The notes beneath the pieces are model-generated. The model searched no databases. It saw only the letters and a list, made by a program, of their open reading frames with translations, and had not been told where the DNA came from. This document shows, one piece after another, positions 35,296 to 48,622 of a stretch of DNA of 64,000 nt. The position numbers and the translations under genes are program-made. Positions within the stretch are counted from its first letter, which is position 1, and each line of letters opens with the position of its first letter. Origin of the DNA: a virus (Duplodnaviria > Caudoviricetes); IMG/VR virus record IMGVR_UViG_3300037466_003648, positions 96,001 to 160,000 of that record. The stretch is one strand, 5' to 3'.

Positions 35296-35964
35296 ATGAG
35301 TGCCACCAAGGACATCGACCAACTGATCGCCGACATCCGTCTCGCGACTGACTTGGTGGCCGAGAAGTCCTTGGTACGTCGCCTGCGTGGCGGTGCTGGA
35401 ACCCTGGACATCTTGAAAAGCGCGTTGGCACGCCTGGCCGAGATCCGTCAAACGTTCTCGATCCCCAACGACGTAGAGATTCTGGACTGGCTGAAGACAC
35501 AGCTTGCCGATCCACCGGCTATCACTGGTAAGGTGATCACTCCCGAAGTTGCGGAGCGCAGTGCTCAACGGTGGCTGCCTTCACCGGATGGTCCCGAACC
35601 TCCTGTTGTGGTCGAACCAGCCTCATTGGAACGGTTGCGACGTCGTCGTCCCAAACAGTGCGCTCGCTGCCCCAACAGCTTTATCCCGACGGGCTACCAA
35701 CAACCCTTCTGCCCTTCGTGTGTCGCTGCAATTGACATCGAGAACGCAGAGATCCGTCGCCAACAGATCGCGGCCGATCCAGAAGACGACAAACGGTCCG
35801 AGTCCGACACCTGGCCCAGCAGCAAGGTGAAGGGATTCCCTTGTGGCAGCTGCGTCAACGGTAAGAAGAACGACCTGTCCGAGAGCGGCTTCGAGTGCAC
35901 CACGAGCTGCGCCCGTGCGTGCGCCCCATGGGGTCCTGCGTGGAAGTACGAAGCGAAGGCTTGA
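35296..35964 (+). CDS. Cys-rich hypothetical protein
   Basis: CARC...CPSC and CGSC...C...C...C; start reassigned to 35296. Confidence 0.55.
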   Translation: MSATKDIDQLIADIRLATDLVAEKSLVRRLRGGAGTLDILKSALARLAEIRQTFSIPNDVEILDWLKTQLADPPAITGKVITPEVAERSAQRWLPSPDGPEPPVVVEPASLERLRRRRPKQCARCPNSFIPTGYQQPFCPSCVAAIDIENAEIRRQQIAADPEDDKRSESDTWPSSKVKGFPCGSCVNGKKNDLSESGFECTTSCARACAPWGPAWKYEAKA

Positions 35965-35989
35965 CAGGATTGCTTCTTGGTGCGATGAT
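35961..35989 (+). promoter_or_regulatory. promoter A (small RNA)
   Basis: TTGACA-17 nt-GATGAT with extended TG; the -10 box lies in the loop of TGGTGC/GCACCA. Confidence 0.65.
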
Positions 35990-35995
35990 AGCACC

Positions 35996-36078
35996 AGCCT
36001 GAGCTTCGGTTCCGTGTCCCAAACATTCCCGAAGCCTTCGCACGAAGCCCCTGCCCGCACAGGGGCTTCGTGCTGTTG
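35996..36078 (+). ncRNA. candidate ~80-nt small RNA
   Basis: No ORF; hairpin GCTTCGG/CCGAAGC with a 19-nt loop, then a 14-bp hairpin at 36040-36073. Ends are inferred. Confidence 0.5.
36040..36078 (+). terminator. 14-bp hairpin, possible terminator with a weak U-tract
   Basis: GCACGAAGCCCCTG/CAGGGGCTTCGTGC followed by TGTT. Confidence 0.5.
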
Positions 36079-36104
36079 ACACATGGATCGATCCATGGTA
36101 ACTT
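36076..36104 (+). promoter_or_regulatory. promoter B with a perfectly palindromic spacer
   Basis: TTGACA-17 nt-TAACTT with extended TG; the spacer contains the 16-bp palindrome CATGGATCGATCCATG. Confidence 0.7.
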
Positions 36105-36110
36105 ACATAC

Positions 36111-36397
36111 ATCAGGCTCTGTCGGAGTGCGGGACACGGAAGACAACCTGCTGGGAGCGAAGGGGCCGCTAGACGCCTGACGCCCTCGAAGGAAGAACCC
36201 GCGGAGTTCTTCACCGTTGTCCCTACCCTCCAATCGTACCCACGGGTCGAGCGGAGTTCCCGAAGGCTGGCCTTGACGGCCTGTACGACTGGAACGTGGG
36301 GGTAGGGGGACACGGTTACTTCGAGGGAGACTCAGCTAACCACTTCCGCCTGACGGGCGGGCGCGCGAGACGAGCCACACGGCTCGTCTTTTTGTTT
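36111..36397 (+). ncRNA. candidate ~285-nt highly structured RNA or attenuator leader
   Basis: No credible ORF; nested helices CCCTCGAAG/CTTCGAGGG, GAAGAAC/GTTCTTC, ACCGTTGTCCCTACCC/GGGTAGGGGGACACGGT, TCGTAC/GTACGA. Confidence 0.6.
36367..36397 (+). terminator. intrinsic terminator
   Basis: AGACGAGCC-ACAC-GGCTCGTCT followed by TTTTGTTT. Confidence 0.85.
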
Positions 36398-36425
36398 GGG
36401 ACCGCGGGTCCTGGGAGGAGATCCG

Positions 36426-36707
36426 TTGCTAAAACTGTACGCCCTGCTAATGATCGTGGGAGCGATCATCGCCTTGACCGGCTTGCTCTGGGCGATCCCG
36501 GAGTACGGTCAGCTGTACCGCACCTGGTTCGTGCTTTCCTCCACCAAGTCGACCGATGCGGTTTGGTTGACACGGCTCTCCGCCCAAGTGCAGATCCACC
36601 GCCTCAACTGCTTTGCCGAGGCGCTGGGTTCCTTGGCCGGACTCTTCATGATCGTGGGCGCCTTGTTAGGCATCTCGATCGAGCGGTTGCGTTCGGCGCC
36701 GCGTTAG
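36426..36707 (+). CDS. small membrane protein with two TM segments
   Basis: GGAGGAG RBS, TTG start at 36426; two hydrophobic stretches. Confidence 0.65.
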   Translation: MLKLYALLMIVGAIIALTGLLWAIPEYGQLYRTWFVLSSTKSTDAVWLTRLSAQVQIHRLNCFAEALGSLAGLFMIVGALLGISIERLRSAPR

Positions 36708-39700
36708 AACCATCCGGTGTGAACCAGGGCATCGTAGACGACGTTGGAAGCACGGTCCAGCACACCGGAACGTGTCGGGGTCGGCGGTGCCACGTCCGCG
36801 CGGGCAGCGTGTGGGCTTGGGGTGTGTCCCTTGATCTGGGCACGACCGCCCTTGACCGTCACCGTTGGGCGCGGCTTTGGCTGCGCCTTGTTGGCGGAGT
36901 CGTTGCTGCCCTGTCGTCCCTGGGGCGTGTTGGTCTGGAGGGTGACGACCATCTTCTTCTTGGCGTTCTTGGGCGCCAGGGACGGCGGCTTGGGCAGCGG
37001 AGACATCTGCTCCAGAATGTCTGGTGCCAGCACCAAAGGCGGGTGGGTGTTCTCACCCTCCCGATCCTTGCGCACGCGCTCGCGCATCTGCAAGTTCTGG
37101 ACGACCAGGTCCGGCGACGGGTGGTTACGACGCCAGAACTCGACCATGTCTCGGTCCGCCTGACGCATGGGGCTCTGGGGCACCAACAGGTCCGTCTGGA
37201 ACGTGCGTTCGTAGTGCCAGGAACCCGCCGCGCCCATCAGCACTTCGAGACCCTTCTTCTTGTTTGCCCATGCGGCCTTCGCGTAGTCGCTCAGGTGCGT
37301 TGTCACCTGGTTGTACTTGTCCTCGTCGCGTGCGTAAGGGCTCAAGCCGCCCGACGCCTGTGGGAACGCCTCGAAGACGGCACGCGCCAAGCCCGTCTGC
37401 CAGTTGCCGGGCATACGCTGGAACTTGTAGGTGTCCATCACACGGTAGTAAGGCACGCCTTGAATGACCGCCGGGCGGACCAGCGCACGACCGATGGCGA
37501 GCTTCTCCGCCTCGACGTCGATGCCGCGCTGGGACGTGCTGACGTAGTCGGCGTACTCGATCGAGTGCGTCTTGCGCTTCGCAGACTCTTCCAGTGCGAA
37601 GCGGTAGCGGTTCAGCTCGTGGCTGGTGAAGCTGCTCTCCGTCATGGCGCCCATGTACGAGTTGTCGTGGCGGCCGAGACCGGCCCAGAACTGGCCTTGG
37701 TAGCGCACGAAGGACGGCACCGATGCACGACCAATCCAGCGCAGCACCTCACCAGGTGCGCTGGCAACGGTACCCACCGTGTTGGTCAGCAACCCCTTGG
37801 TGGCCGTGTTGATCTTGTTGATGCCCCACACGGTCGCACCACCCGCAACAACCGCGGCACCCAACCCAGCCGCCACAGGTGCCCACGCGGGAGCGGTGAT
37901 CACACCGGCCGCGATCAGCCCGGCGGTGCCCGCAGCCGCGGCACCAAAGGCGAGACTGCCCGTGTACATACCGGTAGCACCCGACACCACGTTCAGACCC
38001 GCCTCGCGGCGCTGGGTCTGCGAGGTACCAAAGACGGTTTGCAGGGCGTCCCAACCCACCGCAAGCCCCATCGAGACACGACCGAATGCCTTCGAGGCCG
38101 CCCAGGTCGCTACACGACCCAAGACCCGCATGCCCCGCGAGAGCTTCTGACCCATCCAGTGTGCCGCGTGTCCGGTTGCCGTCGCCAACTGACCCAGTGC
38201 ATGCAGCGCGGTCGACGTCGTCACCATGCCCAGGTTCCAGGTCGCACGGCTCCGCTCTTCGGGGGACGACGTCGAATCGGACAGGGTGTTGATGTCCAAG
38301 GCCGCGAAGGCCGCGCTCAAAGCGAGCGTGCCACGCAATCCCGCAAACGTGTTCGGTGCGCGACCGGGACCGGGTACTGGACCCAGCGGGATGACAGCAG
38401 GCGCCACTGCCGTGTTGGGACGACCCCGGACGGCAGCTGTTGCCCCAGAGCCCAACAAGAGCTGGGGAGTCGAACCCAGAGGAATGACACCGGGCGTGAC
38501 CGCCGTGTTGAGACGACCCCGCGGGGCTGCTACCGTACCAGGACCCAACAAGAGTGGATCGGCGTTCACCGGACCCAAGGCGATCAGGTCGGGCGTGTGC
38601 GCCCCGTTAAGGCGTCCACGGATCTGGGAGGTGGCGGGAGTACCCATGCCCAACACCAAGGGGTTTGCCGGGGCTCCCAGTGCGATCACTTCGGGCGTCA
38701 CGGCACCGTTGAGACGACCCCGCGTGATGGGTTCGGCCGTTACGCCCGGACCCAACAACAAAGGCGCCGTTCGCGTCTGCAGAGAACGCAGCCCCATGCC
38801 ACGGCTGTAGGTGCGTGCCGCGCTGGCAGACTCTTCCAATGGAGCTGCTGCCACGCTCAAGCCGCCGCCCATGGTCAACCCACGGCCCCGCAGCAGCTCG
38901 TAGCCGATCGGCTGACGGGTGGCGGGAGCGGGTTGGTCGGGATGCAGCATGCTCAACCCCGGTCCGTAGGTGGCTCCGTTCCGAGCCAACAGACTGACCG
39001 TCCGGGTCGACAGGCTACCGGGAACACGGCTCTCGGCCATCGCCATTGCATCTTCAATCAGGTGCATCGTGGGCGTTGGACGTACCGCGAAACGTCCTGT
39101 GCTTGGGTCGCGGTAGCGACCTGGCTGCATGATGGGATCGGGACGGAAGCGTGGACGACGCGGCACCACCCCGTAGGTCATTTCGACCAGGTCGGGGTGC
39201 GTAGGGTAGCTCTCACCTTCAACCGGCATGAAGCCGAAGCGCTCACGGCCGGTGGTCCACCGATAGCCATGATCATTCACCAGACGATCGAGAATGGGCA
39301 GCATGCCGCCTCGCTGACCCGCAGGGGCGGGACGGAACCGGCCATCAGGACCACGGTGCGGCAGTACTCGACCGGGCAATTCGATGACATCGGGCGTCGC
39401 CACCGCGTTGGCGCGACCCACCCCGCCCGTTTCCATTTGCTGGCGGAGTACCGTCAACTGCTTGCGAACGGGATCGGTGTGCGGCGCATGCGTACCGTTG
39501 AACAACGCGCCCAACACGTCGTTCTTGGAATGTCCCCACGGGAGACTCCAGACACCCTTGTGTTGGAAGGCCACAATGTGGTCGGTGTTCATCACACCAC
39601 GACCCAACAGACGGGGGTGCAGGTCCCGACGCGGGGCAGCGTTGACCCGATTGTACTCGGGCGTGAACGAGGGATGATCCCCGCGATCGGGCGAACGGAA

Positions 39701-42700
39701 GCGGCCCTGCGAGAAACCAATACCTCCTTCGCGCATGCCGTCCATGACGATGCGCAGGTTGCTGTCACCCAACACCTGCGACACGGAGGTTGCACGCGGC
39801 ATGGCCAAACCATGGGCGCCCGTACGCTCCAAGGGTGCGTCGAAGCGCAGACGCGCATCTCCGTGGAATGGGGTTGCGTGTGCGGGCGCCGCGGGACGCA
39901 GCCCGGCCGCGCGTGCCTGCATATCTTCGCGCAGCGCCACCAATTCTGTGCGAACGGGGTCGACGCCGATCATTCCCTGTTGGGTAGAGACGTGGGCAGC
40001 CACCGTTTGTGGAGCCGCCTCGGGCTTGCGCCAGCCCATCACGGTTGCCAACTGGCGTCCGACCATCGACAAGCCCTTACGGGCCAGCTGCGCAGCGGCG
40101 ATCGTGCCAAAGATCAACGTCGTCCCTGCCGCGAGCGTCGCCAGGTACTGCAACGTGGTCTGGTCCGCATTGCCTTGCGTGGGGTTCTTGCTCATGTCCC
40201 GCACGCCGTACGCGATCGGACGACCTGCACTGTCGTGGGTCGTGCCCGTGAAGAAGCCCCGCTCGCCCAGCATCTGGCGGTACTTTGTCTGCACCTGCTC
40301 GGCGCGCTGACGATCGTACCCCATGCGCTCCTGCAGCAGGTCCGCAATGCGGTCACCCCCAAACTTGCTGTCGACGCTGCCCGCGATGGCTTCCTGCAAC
40401 GCCTTGAACTGGGGGCTGGGGGCCGCCGTGCCGAACGGATGGAAGATCGCGTCGATCTTGCGACCGGGAATGAAGCTGTTCATTTCCGCTGCCGTCTGGA
40501 CCGTCTTGTTGCTGTTGTCCGCGAACTTACCATCACCAATGTAGGTGAACCAGTGCCGTCCGCTGGAGGGGTTCATCGACATCGGATCGGAGCCGGGCAC
40601 GAAGGTCGCGTACAGCACGTCGCCGACGTGCACGCCACCCGTTGCCACCAGGGTGCTGAGCTGAGAGATCGGCACGCCGCGGTGCGCCAGGTCAGCGGGA
40701 ACATCCGTGCGGATGTCCTTGCCGCCCATGCGCATGATCAGGTGACGCGAGTACTGGAAGCATTCGTGCGCGGTCGCAACGAACGGGCCGTTGAGGTGTG
40801 CAATCATCTGCTCGCGAGAAGGTGCCGCACTGGGCGGCTGAATGCCCGCGGCTTCTAGGATCGCATCCGCCTTCTGCTGCGGCGTGGCGATGCGACCCAG
40901 GCTCGCGTTCAGCTTCTTGCTCCAGTAGCCGGGATCGTCTTGTGGGAGCCAACGGCTCTCGTTGTAGAGGTTGGCACGCACGCGACCGGCCATGGTCTGT
41001 GCGATCGCAGGAGACAGCCCCGCACGCTCGACCATGAACTTGTCCAAGCTTCCCTTGTAGCCACCCTTCATGTACTCCGGCAGCACGCGCTCCAAGGTGG
41101 ACTGCTGCTCCTTGGTTAGCAGTGGCTTGTCCTGCGCGACCGAACTCGGTGCCAGGGTGCGAATCTCGCGGATCGTCTGCTCGATGTGGCTGCCGTACGT
41201 GCGGTCGGTCGCGTAGATGCCCGTGATGTTGTAGCCGAAGGCAACGGCATTGTGGTCCTTCTTGTACTGGGCCAACGCCTGTGCGTAGACGGGGTTCTGT
41301 ACGAACAGCTTGCCGTGCGCCACCATCGCCTCTTCCAGCGAACCGTAGTTGGCGAAGTCCGCGTACGTGGTCACGCGCCGACCGCCGACGTCTTCCCAGG
41401 TCTTGAGGTGCAAGCTGCCCCGCGAGCCACGACCCTTGATGCCGAACAGGTTAAAGTCGCCGATCTTGGAAGCGCCCCAACCAGATTCCCACGCCGCCTG
41501 AGCCAGTGTCACTTCGGCCGGTACACCGTACAGCTTCTCAGTCATCTCGGCACCGGCGCGCAGGCTCGCGACGAAGCCCGCCGCTCCCTGACCCAGGTGC
41601 GTACGAGGCGCGTTCGCCAACAACACCGCGTTGCGCATGTCGGTGCCGCTCGCGGGCTTGATGACCTCGCCCGTGAAAGGCTTCTGTGGGCGACCGCGAC
41701 CAGTGGTCCCAATCGTCGCGTCACCACCCACGAACCCACCGTAGGCATGACCCGTGCGATGCCAAACACCACCCAGGATGCCGGTTTCGTAGATCAAGCC
41801 GCGGCGCAGCAGCTCGCCTTGGATGATGCTGTCGGGACCGGACGCCGACCGGTAGCGGAAGGCACGCGCTGCCTGGGCGTTACCCAACCCACCCGTGCCG
41901 CGACCCCGTTGCATGTAGAGCGACTTGAGGCTGTAGTCGTGGGCGGGCATGTCGTTGCCACCCTCCATCAGCCCCAGCGCGTCGCGACCGACCATGTCCA
42001 GCACGGTCTCGTGACCCATCGCACCCGACAGGCGCAGACGCTCCTGTTGGGCGAAGGCCAACGCCCCCGCGTCCATCATCCAGCCAGTGCCGCCACCCTC
42101 CGGCGTGGCCGAGTTACGGCCCCAGAAGATCGGGCTTGCCTGCGCCCACAAGGGCGACAGCGAGAAGCTCCACCCTTCCTGGTTCGCCTTCGCCGCCTCG
42201 AAGAGATTGCCCGGCGCGAGCATAGGACCGATAAAGTTGGCGGTGCCGATCAGGAAGCTCGCAAAGCCGGTCGGCTGCGTCTGTCCCTTGGGCGTCAGCG
42301 TACGTGCCAGTCCGTAGAGTGAACCGGTGACATTCGCCTGCAGCCCAATCGCGGCACGGCTGATGGCATTGCCTACCATCGACGAGCCGGGGATCGAGGC
42401 TGCCGCGCGACCGCTGGCACTCACCACGGACGTCATGGTCGTGCCCAGCGAGGTCGAAGCCCGCTCCGCCCAATTGCGCTCTTCGGGGCGCTTGCTCAGC
42501 GCGCTCTCCGAGAGGTGGTGCTGCGCCATCATGCCGCCGAAGCCCAACGCGGCGAGGCCACCACCCACCAACAACGCAGGCAATCCCACCAAACCGAAGT
42601 AGCCAACAGCCGCGGCGCCCGCCACGGCGCTGCCACCCAAGAACAGTTCGGCCGTCAGCGAGGCACCACCCGCCTCCGCGAACTTCTCCTTCTGCTCCGT

Positions 42701-45700
42701 CGTCAGGAAGTCCGACGACTGGGCGGCCATGCCCGTCGCCACCTGGGCGATCGAGAGTCCTTGCATGACACGACCAAAGCCGTCAAAGGCACCCAACCCC
42801 AGACCCACAGCACCGGCAGCACCCCGACGCAGGTAGCCGGGTGCCGTGGACTTGATCTCGGTCAGGCGAGCTTCCACCGCCGCGCGATGCGCCGCGTAGC
42901 CGCCGGTCGGATCGTTGCGGAAGAGGTAGTCCGCGGGCTTGGTCGTGGCGCCGGGGATGTGCATCCCTGGTGTGTGGGGTGTGAAGGCGGGCTCCAAACC
43001 GGCTCCCGCAACCACGTTCTTGGCGAGTCCCGCGCCTGTCATCCCTGCCTCGCGGAACACCGCGTTCATGTCGATCGGTGCGGTGCCCGCGATCGTACCG
43101 AACTCGTTGAGCATGCGACGCATGATCTGCTCGTACTCGCTCATGAGATCGTCGGTGATCGCGGCCGTCGACGTCGTGGGCAGGCGCAGACCCAGGTCGC
43201 CGATGGCCTTCTGGGTCTCGAACCACGCCGCACTGGGCATGTGACCTGCAGGCATCGAGGTCGGGTGCAGCTTGTCCAACACGTCGAGCACACGTCCCAG
43301 CGACGCACCCATAGCACCCGCCGTGCGGATCTGGGGCAGACCCTCGTAACGCGCGAGCAGCGTGTTGAAGCTTCGCTCAACGAGCTTCGCCTTGTCGCGT
43401 CCGGCCATCACCGTACCGCGAGGATCGGTGCTGTCGGCAAAAGGACGGCCTTGGTAGTCGCCGTAAGCGCGCAACCCATCGCCACCCATCACGGGCAGGT
43501 CGACGCGGTACAGCCCCGCCTTGTTACCGGACAGTGTCCAATGGGGATGGGCGCCCGGACCATGCGGCGCCTCTGGCGAGAGCAGCACGCCGTGCGTCTT
43601 CGCCTGGTGCGTGGGCATGTAGCGCTCGACACGCTCCTGCCAGGTCTCGCGCTCGCCACGCACCCCACGCCAGGCAGCGAACATGGGACGCGCCATGAAG
43701 TGTGCTGCAAACGGTACCGCCGCCAGCGCACCCACCGCCGCGGCGCCCACCAGTGTCGTGGGGTTGGCGAGCCAGTTGACCTGGTACTCGCTCAGCGTGC
43801 GTGCGCCGGTCGGGATGCCCAGCAGGGTGCCTTCCTCCGTGCGAGGTGCTCCCATCAATGCGGCAATGTCGTCTTCGGCCTCCACGTCGCTCGTGCCGGT
43901 GCGATCGGCCTGACGCTGCCCCGCGTACGTCTTGCTGAAGTCCGCCTGGTCCAGCGCTCCGGCCTTGCGCCAGATACCGCCCATCAGGTTGCCCCAGCGG
44001 AACTGCTGGGTCACGCCACCGTCCATACCTCGCACTTGTGCGGTGTAGGTAACTTGGTGCAAGAACGCGGGCTTCGCGCCACCCGGCAAGAACTCGCCGC
44101 GGTAGCGACGGTACTCCGACGGCCACATGCCCAGTGCCGCACGCGACTCGTTGTAGCGCACGGCCATGGCCAGCTTGAGTGCGGGGTCCGCTTCGTACAT
44201 GGGCGAACCCGGCATGAACATGCGACCCATGAATGCGGCGCGCTTGCGGCCGACCCATTCGGTCTCCAACACCTTGCGGGAGCCCCCGATCGCGGCAGCC
44301 AATTGCGAGTCGATCTCACCCGACGACTTGGTGCGCGTGACGTGCCAACCCGTGTTGTAACCGATCGACATGAGTCCGCCGAAGAACATCTTCGTGATCT
44401 TCCAGGTCGCCATCTCCATCGAGTCGGGACCCGTCTGCTTGAACGCAGCGTGCAGACCCAAGTCGCTGTAGGCTTCCGCCGTCATGAAGAACTCTTCGGG
44501 CTTGCCCATGCCGACGGTCTGCTTGGCCGCGCGGTTGAGCATGTCCCAGATACCCAGGTAACCCGGACGGAAGCGGCCCTTGTCACCCGCCGCGCCCGAC
44601 TCGGCCGAGAGCGAGTCCGTGGGACCCGCCGCGAAGCGACGCGCTTCCTGTGGATCGATCGGGGCGGCCACGTTCTTGAGGTCGACGGTCTCGCCGAAGA
44701 GTCGGCTCGCCGAGTTGCCGATCAACGGGATCGCCTTGAGCATCTGGCGGTAGCCGCCCATCTGCTCGCGGTAGCCCTGAGGGTCACCTGTGCTCATCGC
44801 CCGTGCAAAGGCGTAGCCGGTGTAGCCCATGAACAGACCCACGGCGCCACGGGCACCCACACGGTAGCCCCGCGTCAGCTGACCGGTGCGGCGCGTCAAC
44901 TCGTTGACCCAGCCCACGTTGCCGCGGGTGATGCCCTGTGCAGCCACCGTGAAGCCCGCGTTCAGCGCGCGAGGTACCAGGGTCAGGGGCAGCTCGGCCA
45001 GCTCGTTCGCCAGTCCGAAGCCCACCGCCCCCATGCCATAGGCGAACTTGGCGATGCCCCGAGACTTGACCATGCGCTCGGCCATCCCGCGGTTCATGTT
45101 GCCCAGCATACTGAACCCCGAGCCGCGCATCTCGCCCGTACGGATGTAGGCGGCAACGTTGCGTCCCGCATCGAGCAGGCTGCCCCCGTTGCGTGCGAAC
45201 AGCCCCGCCCCGGCGTAGGCACCCAGAGGCGCAAAGCCGTAGGTCGTGGCGAGACCGACACCAATCATTCCAGCACCCAAGCGGACCGAAGCTTCCCAGT
45301 TGGTGTTGGGCTCGTAGCCGAAGCTCATGCCGAAGCGCACGGCATTCGCCGTCCAGCCGTCCTCGCCGCCGGTCGCGTCGATGAGGGCACGCAGGGCGCC
45401 GTCCATCGGGATCTCTTCTTCGTTCTTGTGGTCTCGGTACCAATCCCGGAAGCCCTTGCGACCGCGCAGATCGGAGTAGTAGTACGGGAGCTTGACACTG
45501 CCGTGGATGCCCGACGGCATGCCCAGCATCGCCGTCAGCATGAAGGTGGTCTTGCCACCCTCGACGACGGCGCCGCCCCAGACCGAGCCCAGGGGCAGGT
45601 AACCAATACGCATACCGTACGCCAGCGACAGCGAGACCTGTGCCTTGTCGGCCTGACCCGCCCATTGCTGCGCCATGTCGAGCGTCGCCCGGATGGCACC

Positions 45701-48622
45701 CAGTTCTGCCTGGTCACGAGGACCGGCGCCAGCTGCCACCAGCTTTTCCATGCGCCCCAACGACATGCGCTCCGTCTCGTTGACCATCATCGTGGTCGCC
45801 ATGGTCTTGGTGACGACCTTGTACATGAGGTCTTCACGACTGGCCATGAACGACATGGTCATGTCGCGCTGCATCGCGGTCAGGCGATCGACAAAGTACC
45901 CGGCGATGCCAGACGCCGACCAGTCTCGCAGACCCGCACGCTCCACCTCGCGGTAGGGGTTGTAGCCCCGCAGGTCGCTCGCCACCGAGACCATCTTGGT
46001 CGCGCGCTGGGCAGCCCCCAATGGGTTGAAGGGGTTCATCGACATCCCGGCAACGAACTGGGCACCCCAACTCAAGCCGGTGCTCAGCCCCACCGCGAGC
46101 GCGGGCATGATGTCCAGGATACCCGCCAACCCGCTGCGCGGTGCCAGGTCGGCCCAGCCAAAGTTGGTGACCGTCCCCGCCGCCCCGTGCAGCGTGTTCT
46201 CGCGGTCGATCTGGGTCTCCAGGGTCTCGCGCTTGGCAGACGCCAGCATGCCATAAGCGTGGGTCGCCACCGCGCCGACAAACAGTGCCTGGACGCCACG
46301 ACGGGCCAAGGCACGTCCGGGAGTCAGGCCGGTCTCGCCGTAGAGGTGTCCATAGGAACGCGCGAATTGACCTTGTGCGTGGGCATCACGCCACAGCTCT
46401 TGGGCGCGCGACCAGTCGCCCCGCAGCGCCGCACCCCACCCCGCGCGGCGTGTCGCGCGCATCCCCGCGATGTGAGGGTTTGGTGCCAGGTTGAGCACGT
46501 CGGCGACGAGCCCGCCACCCGGCAGCTCGCGAATGAAGCGATTGGCAACTTGGTTGACCGCCCGAAAACGCTCGTGCAGCGTCATGCGCTTGGCGTCGTG
46601 CTCGATCTCGTAGATCGTGTGAACATGCCCGCTAGGCAGCGTCACCGTCTTGACGTTGATCTTGCCGCCGCGCTGACGACGCAGGTCGAGCGCGAGTTGG
46701 CGGTCGGTGACCTGGACCTTCTTGAGCGACGACTTGTGGTCGTACACGCCCATGACATCGTCGATGAACTTGCGGCCAACGTCCCCCGCTACCGCCCCGT
46801 AGGCTTCGCGCTGGACGCCCCACAAACCCTTGGAGATGCCCGCGTGCACGTCCATCGCGTACTCGCCCGCCTGACCAGCCGCCACCGTCGCGTCACGCAC
46901 GAACGCCGACACCGGGCCATGCACGGGCGCGTTCAGCACCCGATCCCCGATGGTACGACTGATCCGCCCCATCCCGGAAGCCGCCCGCGCACCGATCTCG
47001 GCCATGAACATGGTCGACCGGATCAAGCCGATGTTCATTCCCAGGTTGAAGAGCGTGTCGTCTACCCAACGAGCGCCATCGGCATAGGTGCCCTCCGCCT
47101 TCGCGTCGATCGGACGGTAGTCGGCAGAGCCGTAAACCCGCAGCTGCTCGTCTTGATGGTTCCGACGATCGATCTGGGCGCCCAGGTTGACCAGCAGCGA
47201 GCCCAACGGCCCGCGGTTACCGCGTGCCTCGGTCAGCTCGCTCGCCGTGGCCGCCCAGCCACTGCCGAAGCGCTGGTTGACGTAGTCCGTGATCTGACCG
47301 CGCCACAGCTCGCCGAAGGTGGGCAGCATTGCCTCGCGGTCGCTTCGCGTGATGACGTCCGGCATGGACGACGGCAACTGCCCCTCGTGTCCACCTGCGT
47401 ACATCTCGGTGTAGAGGTGGCGATAGAAGCGCCCGGCCGAACGCATCGGGTTGACGAACGATCCCTGCTCGTGCGTGGCCGCTGCCCACGCGTACGCCTT
47501 GCGCGTGTCGGCATCGAAGATGACCTGGGGGTCCACGACGTACTGCCACGCCTTGCGTTGGCCGCCCAGCGAGATGCCGTGCAGGGGCATCATCGACGGC
47601 ATGAAGGTGCCCAACTTCGTGAACGGCATGCGCAACTGCTCGCCCGCACCGAAGTCGAAGTTGGACTGAACCTGACGAGCGATGTCGGCTGCCACACGGG
47701 CATCGCGGGCGTGCAGCATCACTTCGGTGGAGCGCTCGCCGTTGTAGCCTTCCACCGCGGTCTTGGAGAAGCGCATGGAGCCCACCATGTAGGTGTCACC
47801 CATGGCGATGACGTTGGCGTGCCACGGGCGGTTGCCCCAACCCACATGCAGGTTGGTCAGCGTGCGTCCTGCCGCCGTTAGCTTCTGGAACGCACGACCC
47901 TCGTTATTGATGTCTTGCTGGTTCAGACCACCCAAGCCCACGTAGACCTGATCGCCGCGGCGCGCCTTCTGGATGATCGAGTCCAGGACGTGCGGATCGG
48001 AGAGCGTGGCCGACGCGATGTACAACGCTGCGTGGTTACCCCGATCCCCGATGATGCGGCTCAGCACGTCCAGCGCGGTGCCCGTGTCCTTGGGACTGGC
48101 GACCAGCAGATTCTGGGTCGAGACCGGCGCACGACCAGCAGCGATCGCGCCCAGCACCGTGTCCATCTGGCGGACGAGGTTGGCATCGCGGGTTGCCACG
48201 AAGTAGTTGAACTGGGTCTTGTCCTGGCCGGAGAAGCGGCTGTACTCCGGCAGCGTCGCCATGCCCAAACCCGTCTTGGTCATGTTGGCGGTGCCAACGA
48301 ACATCACACGATCGCCGGTCGGGCTCGTGAACTCGCCGACCTTGGCGTGCAGACGCGAGCCGAAGGTCTTGCGATCGGCTTCGATCAGGTTCGTGTGACC
48401 CTTCAGGGTCTCGTAGGCTTGGGGGTTGGACCACTTCGCGGTGGTGCGCTCCGAACCCACGATGCGACCGCCGCCGGACAGAACCGAACGCGTGAGCCGG
48501 TTGTCCTCCACCTCGTAAGTGGTCATGACCGAACGCGACGACATACCGAGCAGGCTCAGTCGAGCCTGCTCGTCATCCCGGCCAAACCAGGTAGGCGAGG
48601 TGCGATCGTCGAAGGTGGGCAT
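36704..48622 (-). CDS. giant virion protein (tape-measure or ejection-like) with PLD-like, GH73 and NlpC/P60-like domains
   Basis: 3972 aa; HAK...GTANMT and HAN...GSMRFS; AQAAWESGWG...NLFGIKG...YATD; ECFQY...GDVLY...HWFTYIGDG; several hydrophobic Gly/Ala segments. Confidence 0.8.
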   Translation of the reverse strand: MPTFDDRTSPTWFGRDDEQARLSLLGMSSRSVMTTYEVEDNRLTRSVLSGGGRIVGSERTTAKWSNPQAYETLKGHTNLIEADRKTFGSRLHAKVGEFTSPTGDRVMFVGTANMTKTGLGMATLPEYSRFSGQDKTQFNYFVATRDANLVRQMDTVLGAIAAGRAPVSTQNLLVASPKDTGTALDVLSRIIGDRGNHAALYIASATLSDPHVLDSIIQKARRGDQVYVGLGGLNQQDINNEGRAFQKLTAAGRTLTNLHVGWGNRPWHANVIAMGDTYMVGSMRFSKTAVEGYNGERSTEVMLHARDARVAADIARQVQSNFDFGAGEQLRMPFTKLGTFMPSMMPLHGISLGGQRKAWQYVVDPQVIFDADTRKAYAWAAATHEQGSFVNPMRSAGRFYRHLYTEMYAGGHEGQLPSSMPDVITRSDREAMLPTFGELWRGQITDYVNQRFGSGWAATASELTEARGNRGPLGSLLVNLGAQIDRRNHQDEQLRVYGSADYRPIDAKAEGTYADGARWVDDTLFNLGMNIGLIRSTMFMAEIGARAASGMGRISRTIGDRVLNAPVHGPVSAFVRDATVAAGQAGEYAMDVHAGISKGLWGVQREAYGAVAGDVGRKFIDDVMGVYDHKSSLKKVQVTDRQLALDLRRQRGGKINVKTVTLPSGHVHTIYEIEHDAKRMTLHERFRAVNQVANRFIRELPGGGLVADVLNLAPNPHIAGMRATRRAGWGAALRGDWSRAQELWRDAHAQGQFARSYGHLYGETGLTPGRALARRGVQALFVGAVATHAYGMLASAKRETLETQIDRENTLHGAAGTVTNFGWADLAPRSGLAGILDIMPALAVGLSTGLSWGAQFVAGMSMNPFNPLGAAQRATKMVSVASDLRGYNPYREVERAGLRDWSASGIAGYFVDRLTAMQRDMTMSFMASREDLMYKVVTKTMATTMMVNETERMSLGRMEKLVAAGAGPRDQAELGAIRATLDMAQQWAGQADKAQVSLSLAYGMRIGYLPLGSVWGGAVVEGGKTTFMLTAMLGMPSGIHGSVKLPYYYSDLRGRKGFRDWYRDHKNEEEIPMDGALRALIDATGGEDGWTANAVRFGMSFGYEPNTNWEASVRLGAGMIGVGLATTYGFAPLGAYAGAGLFARNGGSLLDAGRNVAAYIRTGEMRGSGFSMLGNMNRGMAERMVKSRGIAKFAYGMGAVGFGLANELAELPLTLVPRALNAGFTVAAQGITRGNVGWVNELTRRTGQLTRGYRVGARGAVGLFMGYTGYAFARAMSTGDPQGYREQMGGYRQMLKAIPLIGNSASRLFGETVDLKNVAAPIDPQEARRFAAGPTDSLSAESGAAGDKGRFRPGYLGIWDMLNRAAKQTVGMGKPEEFFMTAEAYSDLGLHAAFKQTGPDSMEMATWKITKMFFGGLMSIGYNTGWHVTRTKSSGEIDSQLAAAIGGSRKVLETEWVGRKRAAFMGRMFMPGSPMYEADPALKLAMAVRYNESRAALGMWPSEYRRYRGEFLPGGAKPAFLHQVTYTAQVRGMDGGVTQQFRWGNLMGGIWRKAGALDQADFSKTYAGQRQADRTGTSDVEAEDDIAALMGAPRTEEGTLLGIPTGARTLSEYQVNWLANPTTLVGAAAVGALAAVPFAAHFMARPMFAAWRGVRGERETWQERVERYMPTHQAKTHGVLLSPEAPHGPGAHPHWTLSGNKAGLYRVDLPVMGGDGLRAYGDYQGRPFADSTDPRGTVMAGRDKAKLVERSFNTLLARYEGLPQIRTAGAMGASLGRVLDVLDKLHPTSMPAGHMPSAAWFETQKAIGDLGLRLPTTSTAAITDDLMSEYEQIMRRMLNEFGTIAGTAPIDMNAVFREAGMTGAGLAKNVVAGAGLEPAFTPHTPGMHIPGATTKPADYLFRNDPTGGYAAHRAAVEARLTEIKSTAPGYLRRGAAGAVGLGLGAFDGFGRVMQGLSIAQVATGMAAQSSDFLTTEQKEKFAEAGGASLTAELFLGGSAVAGAAAVGYFGLVGLPALLVGGGLAALGFGGMMAQHHLSESALSKRPEERNWAERASTSLGTTMTSVVSASGRAAASIPGSSMVGNAISRAAIGLQANVTGSLYGLARTLTPKGQTQPTGFASFLIGTANFIGPMLAPGNLFEAAKANQEGWSFSLSPLWAQASPIFWGRNSATPEGGGTGWMMDAGALAFAQQERLRLSGAMGHETVLDMVGRDALGLMEGGNDMPAHDYSLKSLYMQRGRGTGGLGNAQAARAFRYRSASGPDSIIQGELLRRGLIYETGILGGVWHRTGHAYGGFVGGDATIGTTGRGRPQKPFTGEVIKPASGTDMRNAVLLANAPRTHLGQGAAGFVASLRAGAEMTEKLYGVPAEVTLAQAAWESGWGASKIGDFNLFGIKGRGSRGSLHLKTWEDVGGRRVTTYADFANYGSLEEAMVAHGKLFVQNPVYAQALAQYKKDHNAVAFGYNITGIYATDRTYGSHIEQTIREIRTLAPSSVAQDKPLLTKEQQSTLERVLPEYMKGGYKGSLDKFMVERAGLSPAIAQTMAGRVRANLYNESRWLPQDDPGYWSKKLNASLGRIATPQQKADAILEAAGIQPPSAAPSREQMIAHLNGPFVATAHECFQYSRHLIMRMGGKDIRTDVPADLAHRGVPISQLSTLVATGGVHVGDVLYATFVPGSDPMSMNPSSGRHWFTYIGDGKFADNSNKTVQTAAEMNSFIPGRKIDAIFHPFGTAAPSPQFKALQEAIAGSVDSKFGGDRIADLLQERMGYDRQRAEQVQTKYRQMLGERGFFTGTTHDSAGRPIAYGVRDMSKNPTQGNADQTTLQYLATLAAGTTLIFGTIAAAQLARKGLSMVGRQLATVMGWRKPEAAPQTVAAHVSTQQGMIGVDPVRTELVALREDMQARAAGLRPAAPAHATPFHGDARLRFDAPLERTGAHGLAMPRATSVSQVLGDSNLRIVMDGMREGGIGFSQGRFRSPDRGDHPSFTPEYNRVNAAPRRDLHPRLLGRGVMNTDHIVAFQHKGVWSLPWGHSKNDVLGALFNGTHAPHTDPVRKQLTVLRQQMETGGVGRANAVATPDVIELPGRVLPHRGPDGRFRPAPAGQRGGMLPILDRLVNDHGYRWTTGRERFGFMPVEGESYPTHPDLVEMTYGVVPRRPRFRPDPIMQPGRYRDPSTGRFAVRPTPTMHLIEDAMAMAESRVPGSLSTRTVSLLARNGATYGPGLSMLHPDQPAPATRQPIGYELLRGRGLTMGGGLSVAAAPLEESASAARTYSRGMGLRSLQTRTAPLLLGPGVTAEPITRGRLNGAVTPEVIALGAPANPLVLGMGTPATSQIRGRLNGAHTPDLIALGPVNADPLLLGPGTVAAPRGRLNTAVTPGVIPLGSTPQLLLGSGATAAVRGRPNTAVAPAVIPLGPVPGPGRAPNTFAGLRGTLALSAAFAALDINTLSDSTSSPEERSRATWNLGMVTTSTALHALGQLATATGHAAHWMGQKLSRGMRVLGRVATWAASKAFGRVSMGLAVGWDALQTVFGTSQTQRREAGLNVVSGATGMYTGSLAFGAAAAGTAGLIAAGVITAPAWAPVAAGLGAAVVAGGATVWGINKINTATKGLLTNTVGTVASAPGEVLRWIGRASVPSFVRYQGQFWAGLGRHDNSYMGAMTESSFTSHELNRYRFALEESAKRKTHSIEYADYVSTSQRGIDVEAEKLAIGRALVRPAVIQGVPYYRVMDTYKFQRMPGNWQTGLARAVFEAFPQASGGLSPYARDEDKYNQVTTHLSDYAKAAWANKKKGLEVLMGAAGSWHYERTFQTDLLVPQSPMRQADRDMVEFWRRNHPSPDLVVQNLQMRERVRKDREGENTHPPLVLAPDILEQMSPLPKPPSLAPKNAKKKMVVTLQTNTPQGRQGSNDSANKAQPKPRPTVTVKGGRAQIKGHTPSPHAARADVAPPTPTRSGVLDRASNVVYDALVHTGWF
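38360..38775 (-). repeat. four degenerate ~31-35-aa tandem repeats in the giant protein
   Basis: Repeated unit PLLLGPG...RGRLN.A.TP..I.LG; DNA repeat GTTGAGACGACCCCGCG. Confidence 0.8.

Follow-up and report, generated by a model that had tools for sequence, protein, structure and literature searches.

An uncatalogued structured RNA family with a dedicated antisense RNA partner in a soil jumbo phage

Whether a long non-coding gap close to the point where the genes of a jumbo phage change direction encodes a functional RNA, and what such an RNA could do, are the questions raised by this locus. The window, meaning the whole 64,000-nt stretch analyzed here, comprises bases 96001–160000 of a 205,180-bp source record with direct terminal repeats and 62.8% GC, and the same DNA is present in soil and rhizosphere metagenomes. 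The nearest cultured relatives of the terminase belong to Microcystis phages and share only 31% identity, indicating that the lineage of this jumbo phage is poorly sampled. Genes lie on the + strand until window position 36707 and on the − strand beyond it, where the block opens with a 3972-aa protein followed by the terminase. The locus is thus situated at the extreme end of the + strand arm, which carries early, DNA-metabolism genes.

Several features of the neighborhood were recorded alongside. The 3972-aa ORF beside the terminase (36704–48622, − strand) contains glucosaminidase and PLD-like domains, and its relatives are 2000–4100 aa long with SLT and M23 peptidase domains. LAGLIDADG inteins are found in the terminase and ribonucleotide reductase genes of related phages, and the window's own copies are free of them. 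A promoter at genome position 97636 (window about 1700–2000) leads into a gene whose product resembles, at its start, a bacterial HU/IHF-type DNA-binding protein, and relatives carry a Bac_DNA_binding gene 3' of a PD-(D/E)XK gene.

The preliminary description of this DNA had reported 430 bp of non-coding sequence holding one RNA gene. The gap was real and measured 461 bp (35965–36425), but it contains two RNA genes, named A1 and B1; their homologs in a paralogous and an orthologous cassette, described below, are numbered 2 and 3. The elements of the locus are as follows.

35296–35964, + strand: upstream gene for a hypothetical, Cys-rich protein of 222 aa (supported by its translation and by the GC profile over codon positions).
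35961–35989, + strand: promoter of A1, with TTGACA, 17 nt and GATGAT (consensus scan; layout shared by the paralog and the ortholog).
35996–36075, + strand: small RNA A1, about 80 nt (fold z-score −5.9; homologous to A2 and A3).
36076–36104, + strand: promoter of B1, with TTGACA at 36076–36081, a 17-nt spacer and TAACTT at 36099–36104 (consensus).
36111–36368, + strand: conserved core of the structured RNA B1 (covariance-model matches to B2 and B3; 23 doubly changed pairs).
36367–36398, + strand: intrinsic terminator of B1, a 10-bp stem (36367–36390) followed by the T-run TTTTTGTTT.
36426–36707, + strand: gene for a 93-aa protein, with a TTG start and the RBS GGGAGGAG at 36413–36420.

The upstream 222-aa protein had no match in Pfam or PHROG, and the TGA stop codon of its gene falls within the −35 hexamer of the A1 promoter. 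The B1 unit, including its terminator, occupies 36111–36398 on the + strand, with a predicted transcription start at A36111 and a conserved core of ~260 nt. Codon-position GC bias was absent across 36110–36400 and clear in both flanking genes, and the short ORFs in this stretch were not conserved in the paralog, which bears out the earlier reading that no plausible ORF is present. A search of the whole window against Rfam 15 (4227 models) gave no match at gathering scores, and 35900–36500 gave none at E ≤ 10. Together with the compensatory variation in three homologs described below, this supports the original proposal that a structured RNA of no recognized kind is flanked here by a promoter and a terminator.

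The promoter of B1 is one of 13 sites in the genome of the form TTGAC[AG]-N15-19-TAnnnT. All 13 are on the + strand, 12 are intergenic according to our own gene calls, and most of the others are followed within about 30–60 nt by an RBS and a start codon. The strand bias, the intergenic placing and the nearby translation signals indicate that these sites behave as real host-type promoters. Among them, the B1 promoter is unusual in having no gene directly behind it. TTGAC[AG]-type sites in the window lie at 1636, 31201, 33262, 35961, and 36076. At many such sites the spacer or its immediate surroundings hold palindromes containing GATC, for instance GGATCGATCC, which are a possible operator motif. 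Their −10 hexamers (TAGGAT, TAGGGT, and TACTGT) resemble actinobacterial ones and hint at the host.

A paralog of B1 in the same genome was found by nhmmer, and a profile search with the same program revealed no third copy. This paralog, B2, lies outside the window at genome 83277–83680, 49 kb upstream (nhmmer E 3e-11), where it directly precedes a 32-tRNA array (genome C1:83958–87783). B2 has no terminator; the next gene's own promoter lies 7 nt past its end, so that the order 3' of B2 is promoter, 33-codon ORF, and tRNA array. The array itself contains an internal promoter-like site at 86704, and three further tRNAs are located elsewhere in the genome. Five blocks were invariant between B1 and B2, namely the 5' GGCTCTG, CGAAGGGGC...ACGCC, a 19-nt G-rich block, CTCAGCTAAC, and GCGGGCGCGCGA, and outside such blocks the copies were only about 55–60% identical. 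The covariance model of B1 scored B2 at 23 bits. B2 folded with −107.5 kcal/mol on the + strand and −84.1 kcal/mol on the − strand, and this difference, together with the G-U pairs that occur within the conserved helices, indicates that the + strand is the RNA strand. In the region of the paralog, Rfam at E ≤ 10 gave only two chance-level matches, both on the A2 terminator.

The ortholog was found through a neighboring protein. The PD-(D/E)XK protein encoded 3 kb upstream of the RNA has a 61%-identical relative encoded by a soil contig of 71.8 kb whose gene order is the same, and the syntenic 455-bp gap of this contig contains a complete A+B cassette. Its B3 matched the covariance model of B1 with 86 bits. 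The G-rich block is altered to GGGATGGGGACACGGTT in B3; it is therefore not invariant, which explains why exact-motif scans failed. In a further relative (56% identity), there was no gap, no RNA of either kind and no small gene, and the preceding gene abuts the giant gene.

Other searches for homologs returned nothing further within their scope. Exact-motif scans with the G-rich and other blocks over IMG/VR, JGI metagenomes, and GTDB genomes, with matches vetted by nhmmer or the covariance model, produced only chance matches or the near-identical contig. A blastn search of GenBank phages produced no match. Used as bait, the C-terminus of the giant protein and a MazG-like protein retrieved themselves only, and the Cys-rich upstream protein retrieved only the near-identical contig. 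Relatives of the terminase at 51–80% identity are on contigs that stop short of the RNA site. For the IMG/VR relatives (≤39% identity), a covariance-model search of five records gave no match, and the nearest of them (43% GC), searched over its whole sequence, gave no nhmmer match. A literature search turned up no described equivalent. B is a real, previously uncatalogued phage RNA family with three members and a dedicated antisense partner. Structured RNAs under a kissing-loop small RNA are a known general kind; what is new is this family, along with the way it is built and its context.

The near-identical IMG/VR contig (99.4%) differs by 36 SNPs in 6.5 kb, none of which falls within the 1.4 kb of 35392–36801 that includes both RNA genes. 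This may be taken as a weak suggestion of constraint, weak because the SNPs are clustered. Metagenomic contigs from four soil or rhizosphere runs were identical to the reference wherever the RNA was covered.

The preliminary description had called the RNA highly structured on the basis of helices recognized in the letters. All of these helices are in the sequence and recur in minimum-free-energy folds: CCCTCGAAG (36183–36191) with CTTCGAGGG (36319–36327), GAAGAAC (36192–36198) with GTTCTTC (36206–36212), a long irregular helix (36213–36239 with 36283–36317), and CCGCC (36346–36350) with GGCGG (36356–36360). Thermodynamics did not single out the RNA, since the folding energy of the + strand was unexceptional (z = −1.8, or −0.3 when the terminator was left out). 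The structure must therefore rest on comparative evidence, and there the claim held. The elements of the fold are as follows.

36158–36177, + strand: conserved block CGAAGGGGC ... ACGCC, which can pair with the conserved 5' end GGCTCTGTCG (36115–36124).
36183–36327, + strand: three-way-junction domain, closed by 36183–36191 with 36319–36327.
36192–36212, + strand: hairpin GAAGAAC/GTTCTTC with a CGCG-containing loop.
36213–36317, + strand: long irregular arm, in which a C-rich 5' strand pairs with the G-rich block 36299–36317.
36331–36340, + strand: conserved block CTCAGCTAAC, which is CTCTGCTAAC in B3 (alignments).
36346–36368, + strand: CCGCC/GGCGG hairpin and GC-rich 3' block, ending in GCGCGAG.

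From 5' to 3', B thus consists of a 5' hairpin domain, a three-way junction formed by the closing helix, the short hairpin and the long G/C-rich arm, and a conserved 3' tail. A covariance model was built from B1, and B2 and B3 were aligned to it with filters off. In the alignment of the three sequences, 92% of the cells were standard pairs, and 23 pairs had changed on both sides yet remained paired. Register-shifted controls, in which the partners were slid by 1–3 columns, gave 0–3 doubly changed pairs and 42–48% pairing. The covariation that had been named as a test of the RNA was thus found across the three homologs, which come from two phages. Fitting the alignment to the B1-derived structure inflates the counts of doubly changed pairs, and B2 was therefore tested alone by shuffling the segments between sequence anchors. 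The closing helix (helix 8) was 95.8% paired, with five pairs changed on both sides and a B2 shuffle p of 0.034. The short hairpin (helix 9) was 100% paired with five such pairs (p = 0.033). The long arm (helices 10–12) was also 100% paired, with seven doubly changed pairs, and its 5' segment against the G-rich block in B2 reached p ≤ 0.001. Its apex is branched and varies in length and sequence across the copies.

The outer part of the fold is less certain than the core helices. The CGAAGGGGC ... ACGCC block is kept in all three RNAs, and when B1 and B3 are folded at full length it is paired. The conserved 5' end of B has two alternative partners, this block (in the B1 and B3 folds) or the GC-rich 3' block, and covariation cannot choose between them because both are nearly invariant. 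The loop of the short hairpin (36199–36205) retains a CGCG core in B1 and B2 despite changes in the stem, and the corresponding loop of B3, GTCGAC, is also palindromic. The 3' block of B1 (36357–36368) contains the palindrome CGCGCG. From their sequences, the loop CGCG and the 3' CGCGCG could form a loop-tail pseudoknot or a dimerisation contact.

The comparative data bear on two other explanations of the locus. One is that conservation acts at the level of DNA, as in an origin, a recombination site or an operator cluster, or that the copies reflect a recent functionless duplication. The region does contain tandem promoters and GATC-containing palindromes, and the upstream genes point to a segmental duplication: in the genes 5' of the two cassettes (for B1, window 35825–35920), the C-terminal ~35 residues are weakly alike (13/35 identical, E 0.03), so the duplication of the cassette may have included the 3' end of a gene. 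Both upstream genes also end with GCT TGA within the −35 hexamer. However, invariant blocks between helices in which only pairing is kept, and G-U pairs, which would be A-C on the other strand, are typical of RNA, and identity outside the blocks is too low (55–60%, as given above) to sit well with a recent copy. GC skew showed nothing origin-like at the site of B1, and a replication origin at this locus was rejected on that ground. We regard a DNA-level explanation as very improbable.

The other holds that B belongs to a known class, for instance riboswitches, 6S RNA, tmRNA pieces, RNase P RNA or P1/P4 c4-type immunity RNAs, and has diverged so far that it lies out of reach of the Rfam models. 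The leader-plus-terminator layout of B1 and B3 is typical of riboswitches, and B2 adjoins a tRNA array. Against this, neither B1 nor B2 matched any of the 4227 families at E ≤ 10, and inspection of the B copies found no conserved antiterminator pairing that would compete with the terminator, i.e. no conserved alternative to it. ARAGORN detected no tmRNA in the window or the genome, and the frames starting from GCT AAC codons were not tag-like: in B1 the frame never meets a stop, and in B2 the peptide is atypical. A tmRNA, or the coding half of a two-piece tmRNA, was rejected on these grounds. Overall, a diverged known class is quite unlikely.

Each copy of B has its own upstream small RNA A of 80–105 nt, with its own host-type promoter and terminator and two hairpins. 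In A1, the stem of the first hairpin is formed by 36003–36009 and 36029–36035 and encloses the loop 36010–36028 with a C-rich apex, and the terminator is a 14-bp GC hairpin (36040–36073). A2 is built like A1 (z = −5.1) and A3 folds alike. The stems of A1, A2, and A3 differ in sequence and keep their pairing, indicating covariation, and all three RNAs carry an apical mini-hairpin with a C-rich loop (CCCAA, CCCCA, and CCCC). The loop of A1 is complementary to the following element near the 5' end of B1.

36124–36141, + strand: G-rich 5' hairpin of B1, +14 to +31, complementary to the A1 loop (read from the sequence).

The complementarity in copy 1 covers 11 + 6 bp; it reaches 19 bp, interrupted by one bulge, in copy 2 and about 18 bp in copy 3. 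All three cassettes are complementary at corresponding positions, and copies 1 and 2 are distinguished by two compensatory substitutions and one co-insertion, so that the predicted A:B loop-loop recognition code differs between copies. A second A:B match, of 9 nt, is present in copy 2 only. For A2, no non-self site in the 205 kb pairs better than B2 (−44.9 kcal/mol), the runner-up reaching −36. The A1:B1 duplex (−29.8 kcal/mol) falls among the values that chance sites attain in a genome this rich in GC. Strong target discrimination was seen for A2 only, and A1 and A3 lacked it.

The gene behind B1 provides a further link. In the 93-aa protein, two hydrophobic stretches were read by eye as membrane helices, making it a candidate membrane protein. 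It is homologous to the 90-aa product of the gene after B3 (29% identity, E 3e-7). Both genes have an RBS and no promoter of their own, and both start 20–30 nt past the terminator, indicating that B is at least the only leader through which they can be transcribed. The RNA cassette and the small gene also co-occur, since both are present in the B3 contig and neither in the 56%-identity relative. After B2, the membrane-protein gene is absent. The preliminary description had missed the upstream small RNA, the paralog by the tRNA array and the role of B1 as the only promoter-driven leader of the 93-aa gene.

According to the above results, we propose that B is an antisense-gated leader that controls read-through into, or expression of, the downstream genes, and we give this reading a probability of about 40%. 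The data establish the two RNA genes with their promoters, the fold conserved in B, the match between A and B, and the link to the gene that follows; every functional step beyond these is proposed. The loop of A would kiss the cognate G-rich hairpin at +14 to +31 of B and extend to a duplex of 17–19 bp. This binding would alter the fold, stability or activity of B, and B in cis would set how much transcription or translation passes downstream. The output would be the terminator-guarded gene for the ~90-aa membrane protein at B1 and B3, and the small-ORF/tRNA operon at B2. One option is that B renders the polymerase terminator-resistant, as the HK022 put RNA does, which would fit both loci. Another, which would fit B1 and B3, is gating with delayed release, of the kind exerted by type I toxin mRNA leaders. 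The reading as a cis leader is favored by the homologous promoter-less genes after B1 and B3, by the joint absence of cassette and gene in the relative, and by the leaders of only about 30–60 nt at the other promoters.

A simple attenuator is not among the options. In the folding model, the terminator of B1 formed with a pair probability of 0.98 whether or not the A target was blocked, and the terminators of B1 and B3 together ranged over 0.98–1.0 under both conditions. As the modeled terminator is indifferent to blocking of the A target, a terminator switch controlled by A was rejected.

Other observations also stand against the cis leader. No terminator follows B2, and a separate promoter for the next gene lies 7 nt on. 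Judged from the sequence, the conserved core extends from the predicted start to just short of the terminator and its conserved 5' and 3' ends can pair, so that it looks more like a free-standing RNA. In the energy models, A1:B1 pairing is at chance level and only A2 discriminates strongly. The main rival explanation, to which we give only slightly less weight, is a different one: B would be a free-standing, trans-acting stable RNA, serving as a protein scaffold, as a decoy or sponge, or as a catalyst, with a terminator that merely ends it and incidental read-through. Antisense pairing by A would then adjust how much B is present or how active it is, for example via cleavage by RNase III. Pairing of the 5' end with internal or 3' blocks occurs in many stable RNAs, sequence is strongly conserved in blocks beyond what base pairing by itself would demand, the modeled terminator forms constitutively, and B2 keeps the fold and the strongest A partner without a terminator or a membrane-protein gene. 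However, no candidate partner protein is common to both loci, where the upstream genes are unrelated save for their weak C-terminal similarity, and the cassette and the small gene, which has no other promoter, were gained or lost together. A trans target of the G-rich block was also considered and rejected, as none was outstanding across the phage genome.

The antisense-gated leader must further be compared with a type I toxin-antitoxin-like pair, in which A would be the antitoxin and the toxin either the ~90-aa membrane protein, with B as an inert 5' UTR, or a peptide within B. An adjacent small RNA with 17–19 nt of predicted complementarity to the far 5' UTR, a long and structured UTR, pairing specificity that partly differs between paralogous cassettes, and a downstream product resembling a small membrane protein with two hydrophobic helices would all suit such a pair. 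Yet the ORFs inside B are hydrophilic and vary between copies in frame, length, and start, B2 is not followed by the membrane-protein gene, and an intrinsic terminator between UTR and ORF is atypical. A conserved peptide inside B was rejected because the internal ORFs are not conserved between copies. We find a pair of this type unlikely.

A bolder form of the proposal is doubtful. B might be a new cis-acting RNA class, larger than and unrelated to HK022 put, that makes the host polymerase ignore terminators and is turned off through a kissing-loop small RNA, or it might form the core of a ribozyme or ribonucleoprotein of a new kind whose RNA regulator is built in.

It is rare for a phage-encoded structured RNA to come with its own regulator, and functions are known for only a few such RNAs. 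The A/B cassette looks like an RNA-only control unit; at about 400 bp it is compact, its promoters and ends are defined, and it occurs in two contexts, ahead of a small membrane protein at one locus and of a tRNA operon at the other. If B gates read-through or timing, the cassette would be a new protein-free control device and a portable pair of RNA parts, and a put-like B would provide an RNA-only timer for the membrane protein and the 32-tRNA operon. Even with a modest role, B would be a family absent from current RNA libraries, from a poorly sampled soil jumbo phage lineage.

Among known systems, riboswitches and attenuators share with B1 and B3, and not with B2, the order of a leader followed by an intrinsic terminator before the ORF. 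The T4 stable RNAs C and D, ROOL, and GOLLD are, like B, phage non-coding RNAs of unknown function, some of them beside tRNA genes; ROOL and GOLLD are both in Rfam and do not match B.

The c4 RNA of P1/P7 and the CI RNA of P4 (Rfam C4, RF01695) resemble A/B in that an antisense small RNA of a phage is encoded on the same strand just 5' of its target transcript, with short complementary boxes whose sequence varies between related phages or copies. Unlike them, A/B has no match to RF01695, and A has its own promoter and terminator and is not processed from the target transcript. Moreover, the target B is a conserved folded RNA of ~260 nt and not an icd/ant or P4 leader, and an effect on termination is not supported by modeling for A/B.

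In type I pairs with trans-encoded antitoxins, such as tisB/istR-1, zorO/orzO, and shoB/ohsC, a small RNA is complementary over ~18–20 nt to a long, structured 5' UTR at a site distant from the RBS, and the product is a small membrane protein. The adjacent small RNA, the complementarity to the far 5' UTR, the paralogous cassettes, and the small membrane product are all shared with A/B. However, A and B are on the same strand and not divergent, a terminator lies between UTR and ORF, the protein is larger here (90–93 aa), and the B2 cassette has no such gene.

In ColE1 RNA I/RNA II and R1 CopA/CopT, a short multi-hairpin RNA makes a loop-loop contact near the 5' end of a longer RNA and can redirect its folding. 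The loop of a short RNA is likewise complementary to a 5' hairpin of a longer folded RNA in A/B, whereas A is in tandem on the same strand and not on the strand opposite B, the complementarity covers only about 20 nt, and no replication function is apparent from GC skew.

HK022 put and Bacillus EAR are cis-acting RNAs of processive antitermination. Like B, they are folded RNAs at or near +1, ahead of terminators and long structured operons; B is 2–4 times larger and has no sequence or Rfam similarity to them. Antitermination of the put kind would unify B1 and B3, with their terminator and gene, with B2 and its tRNA operon.
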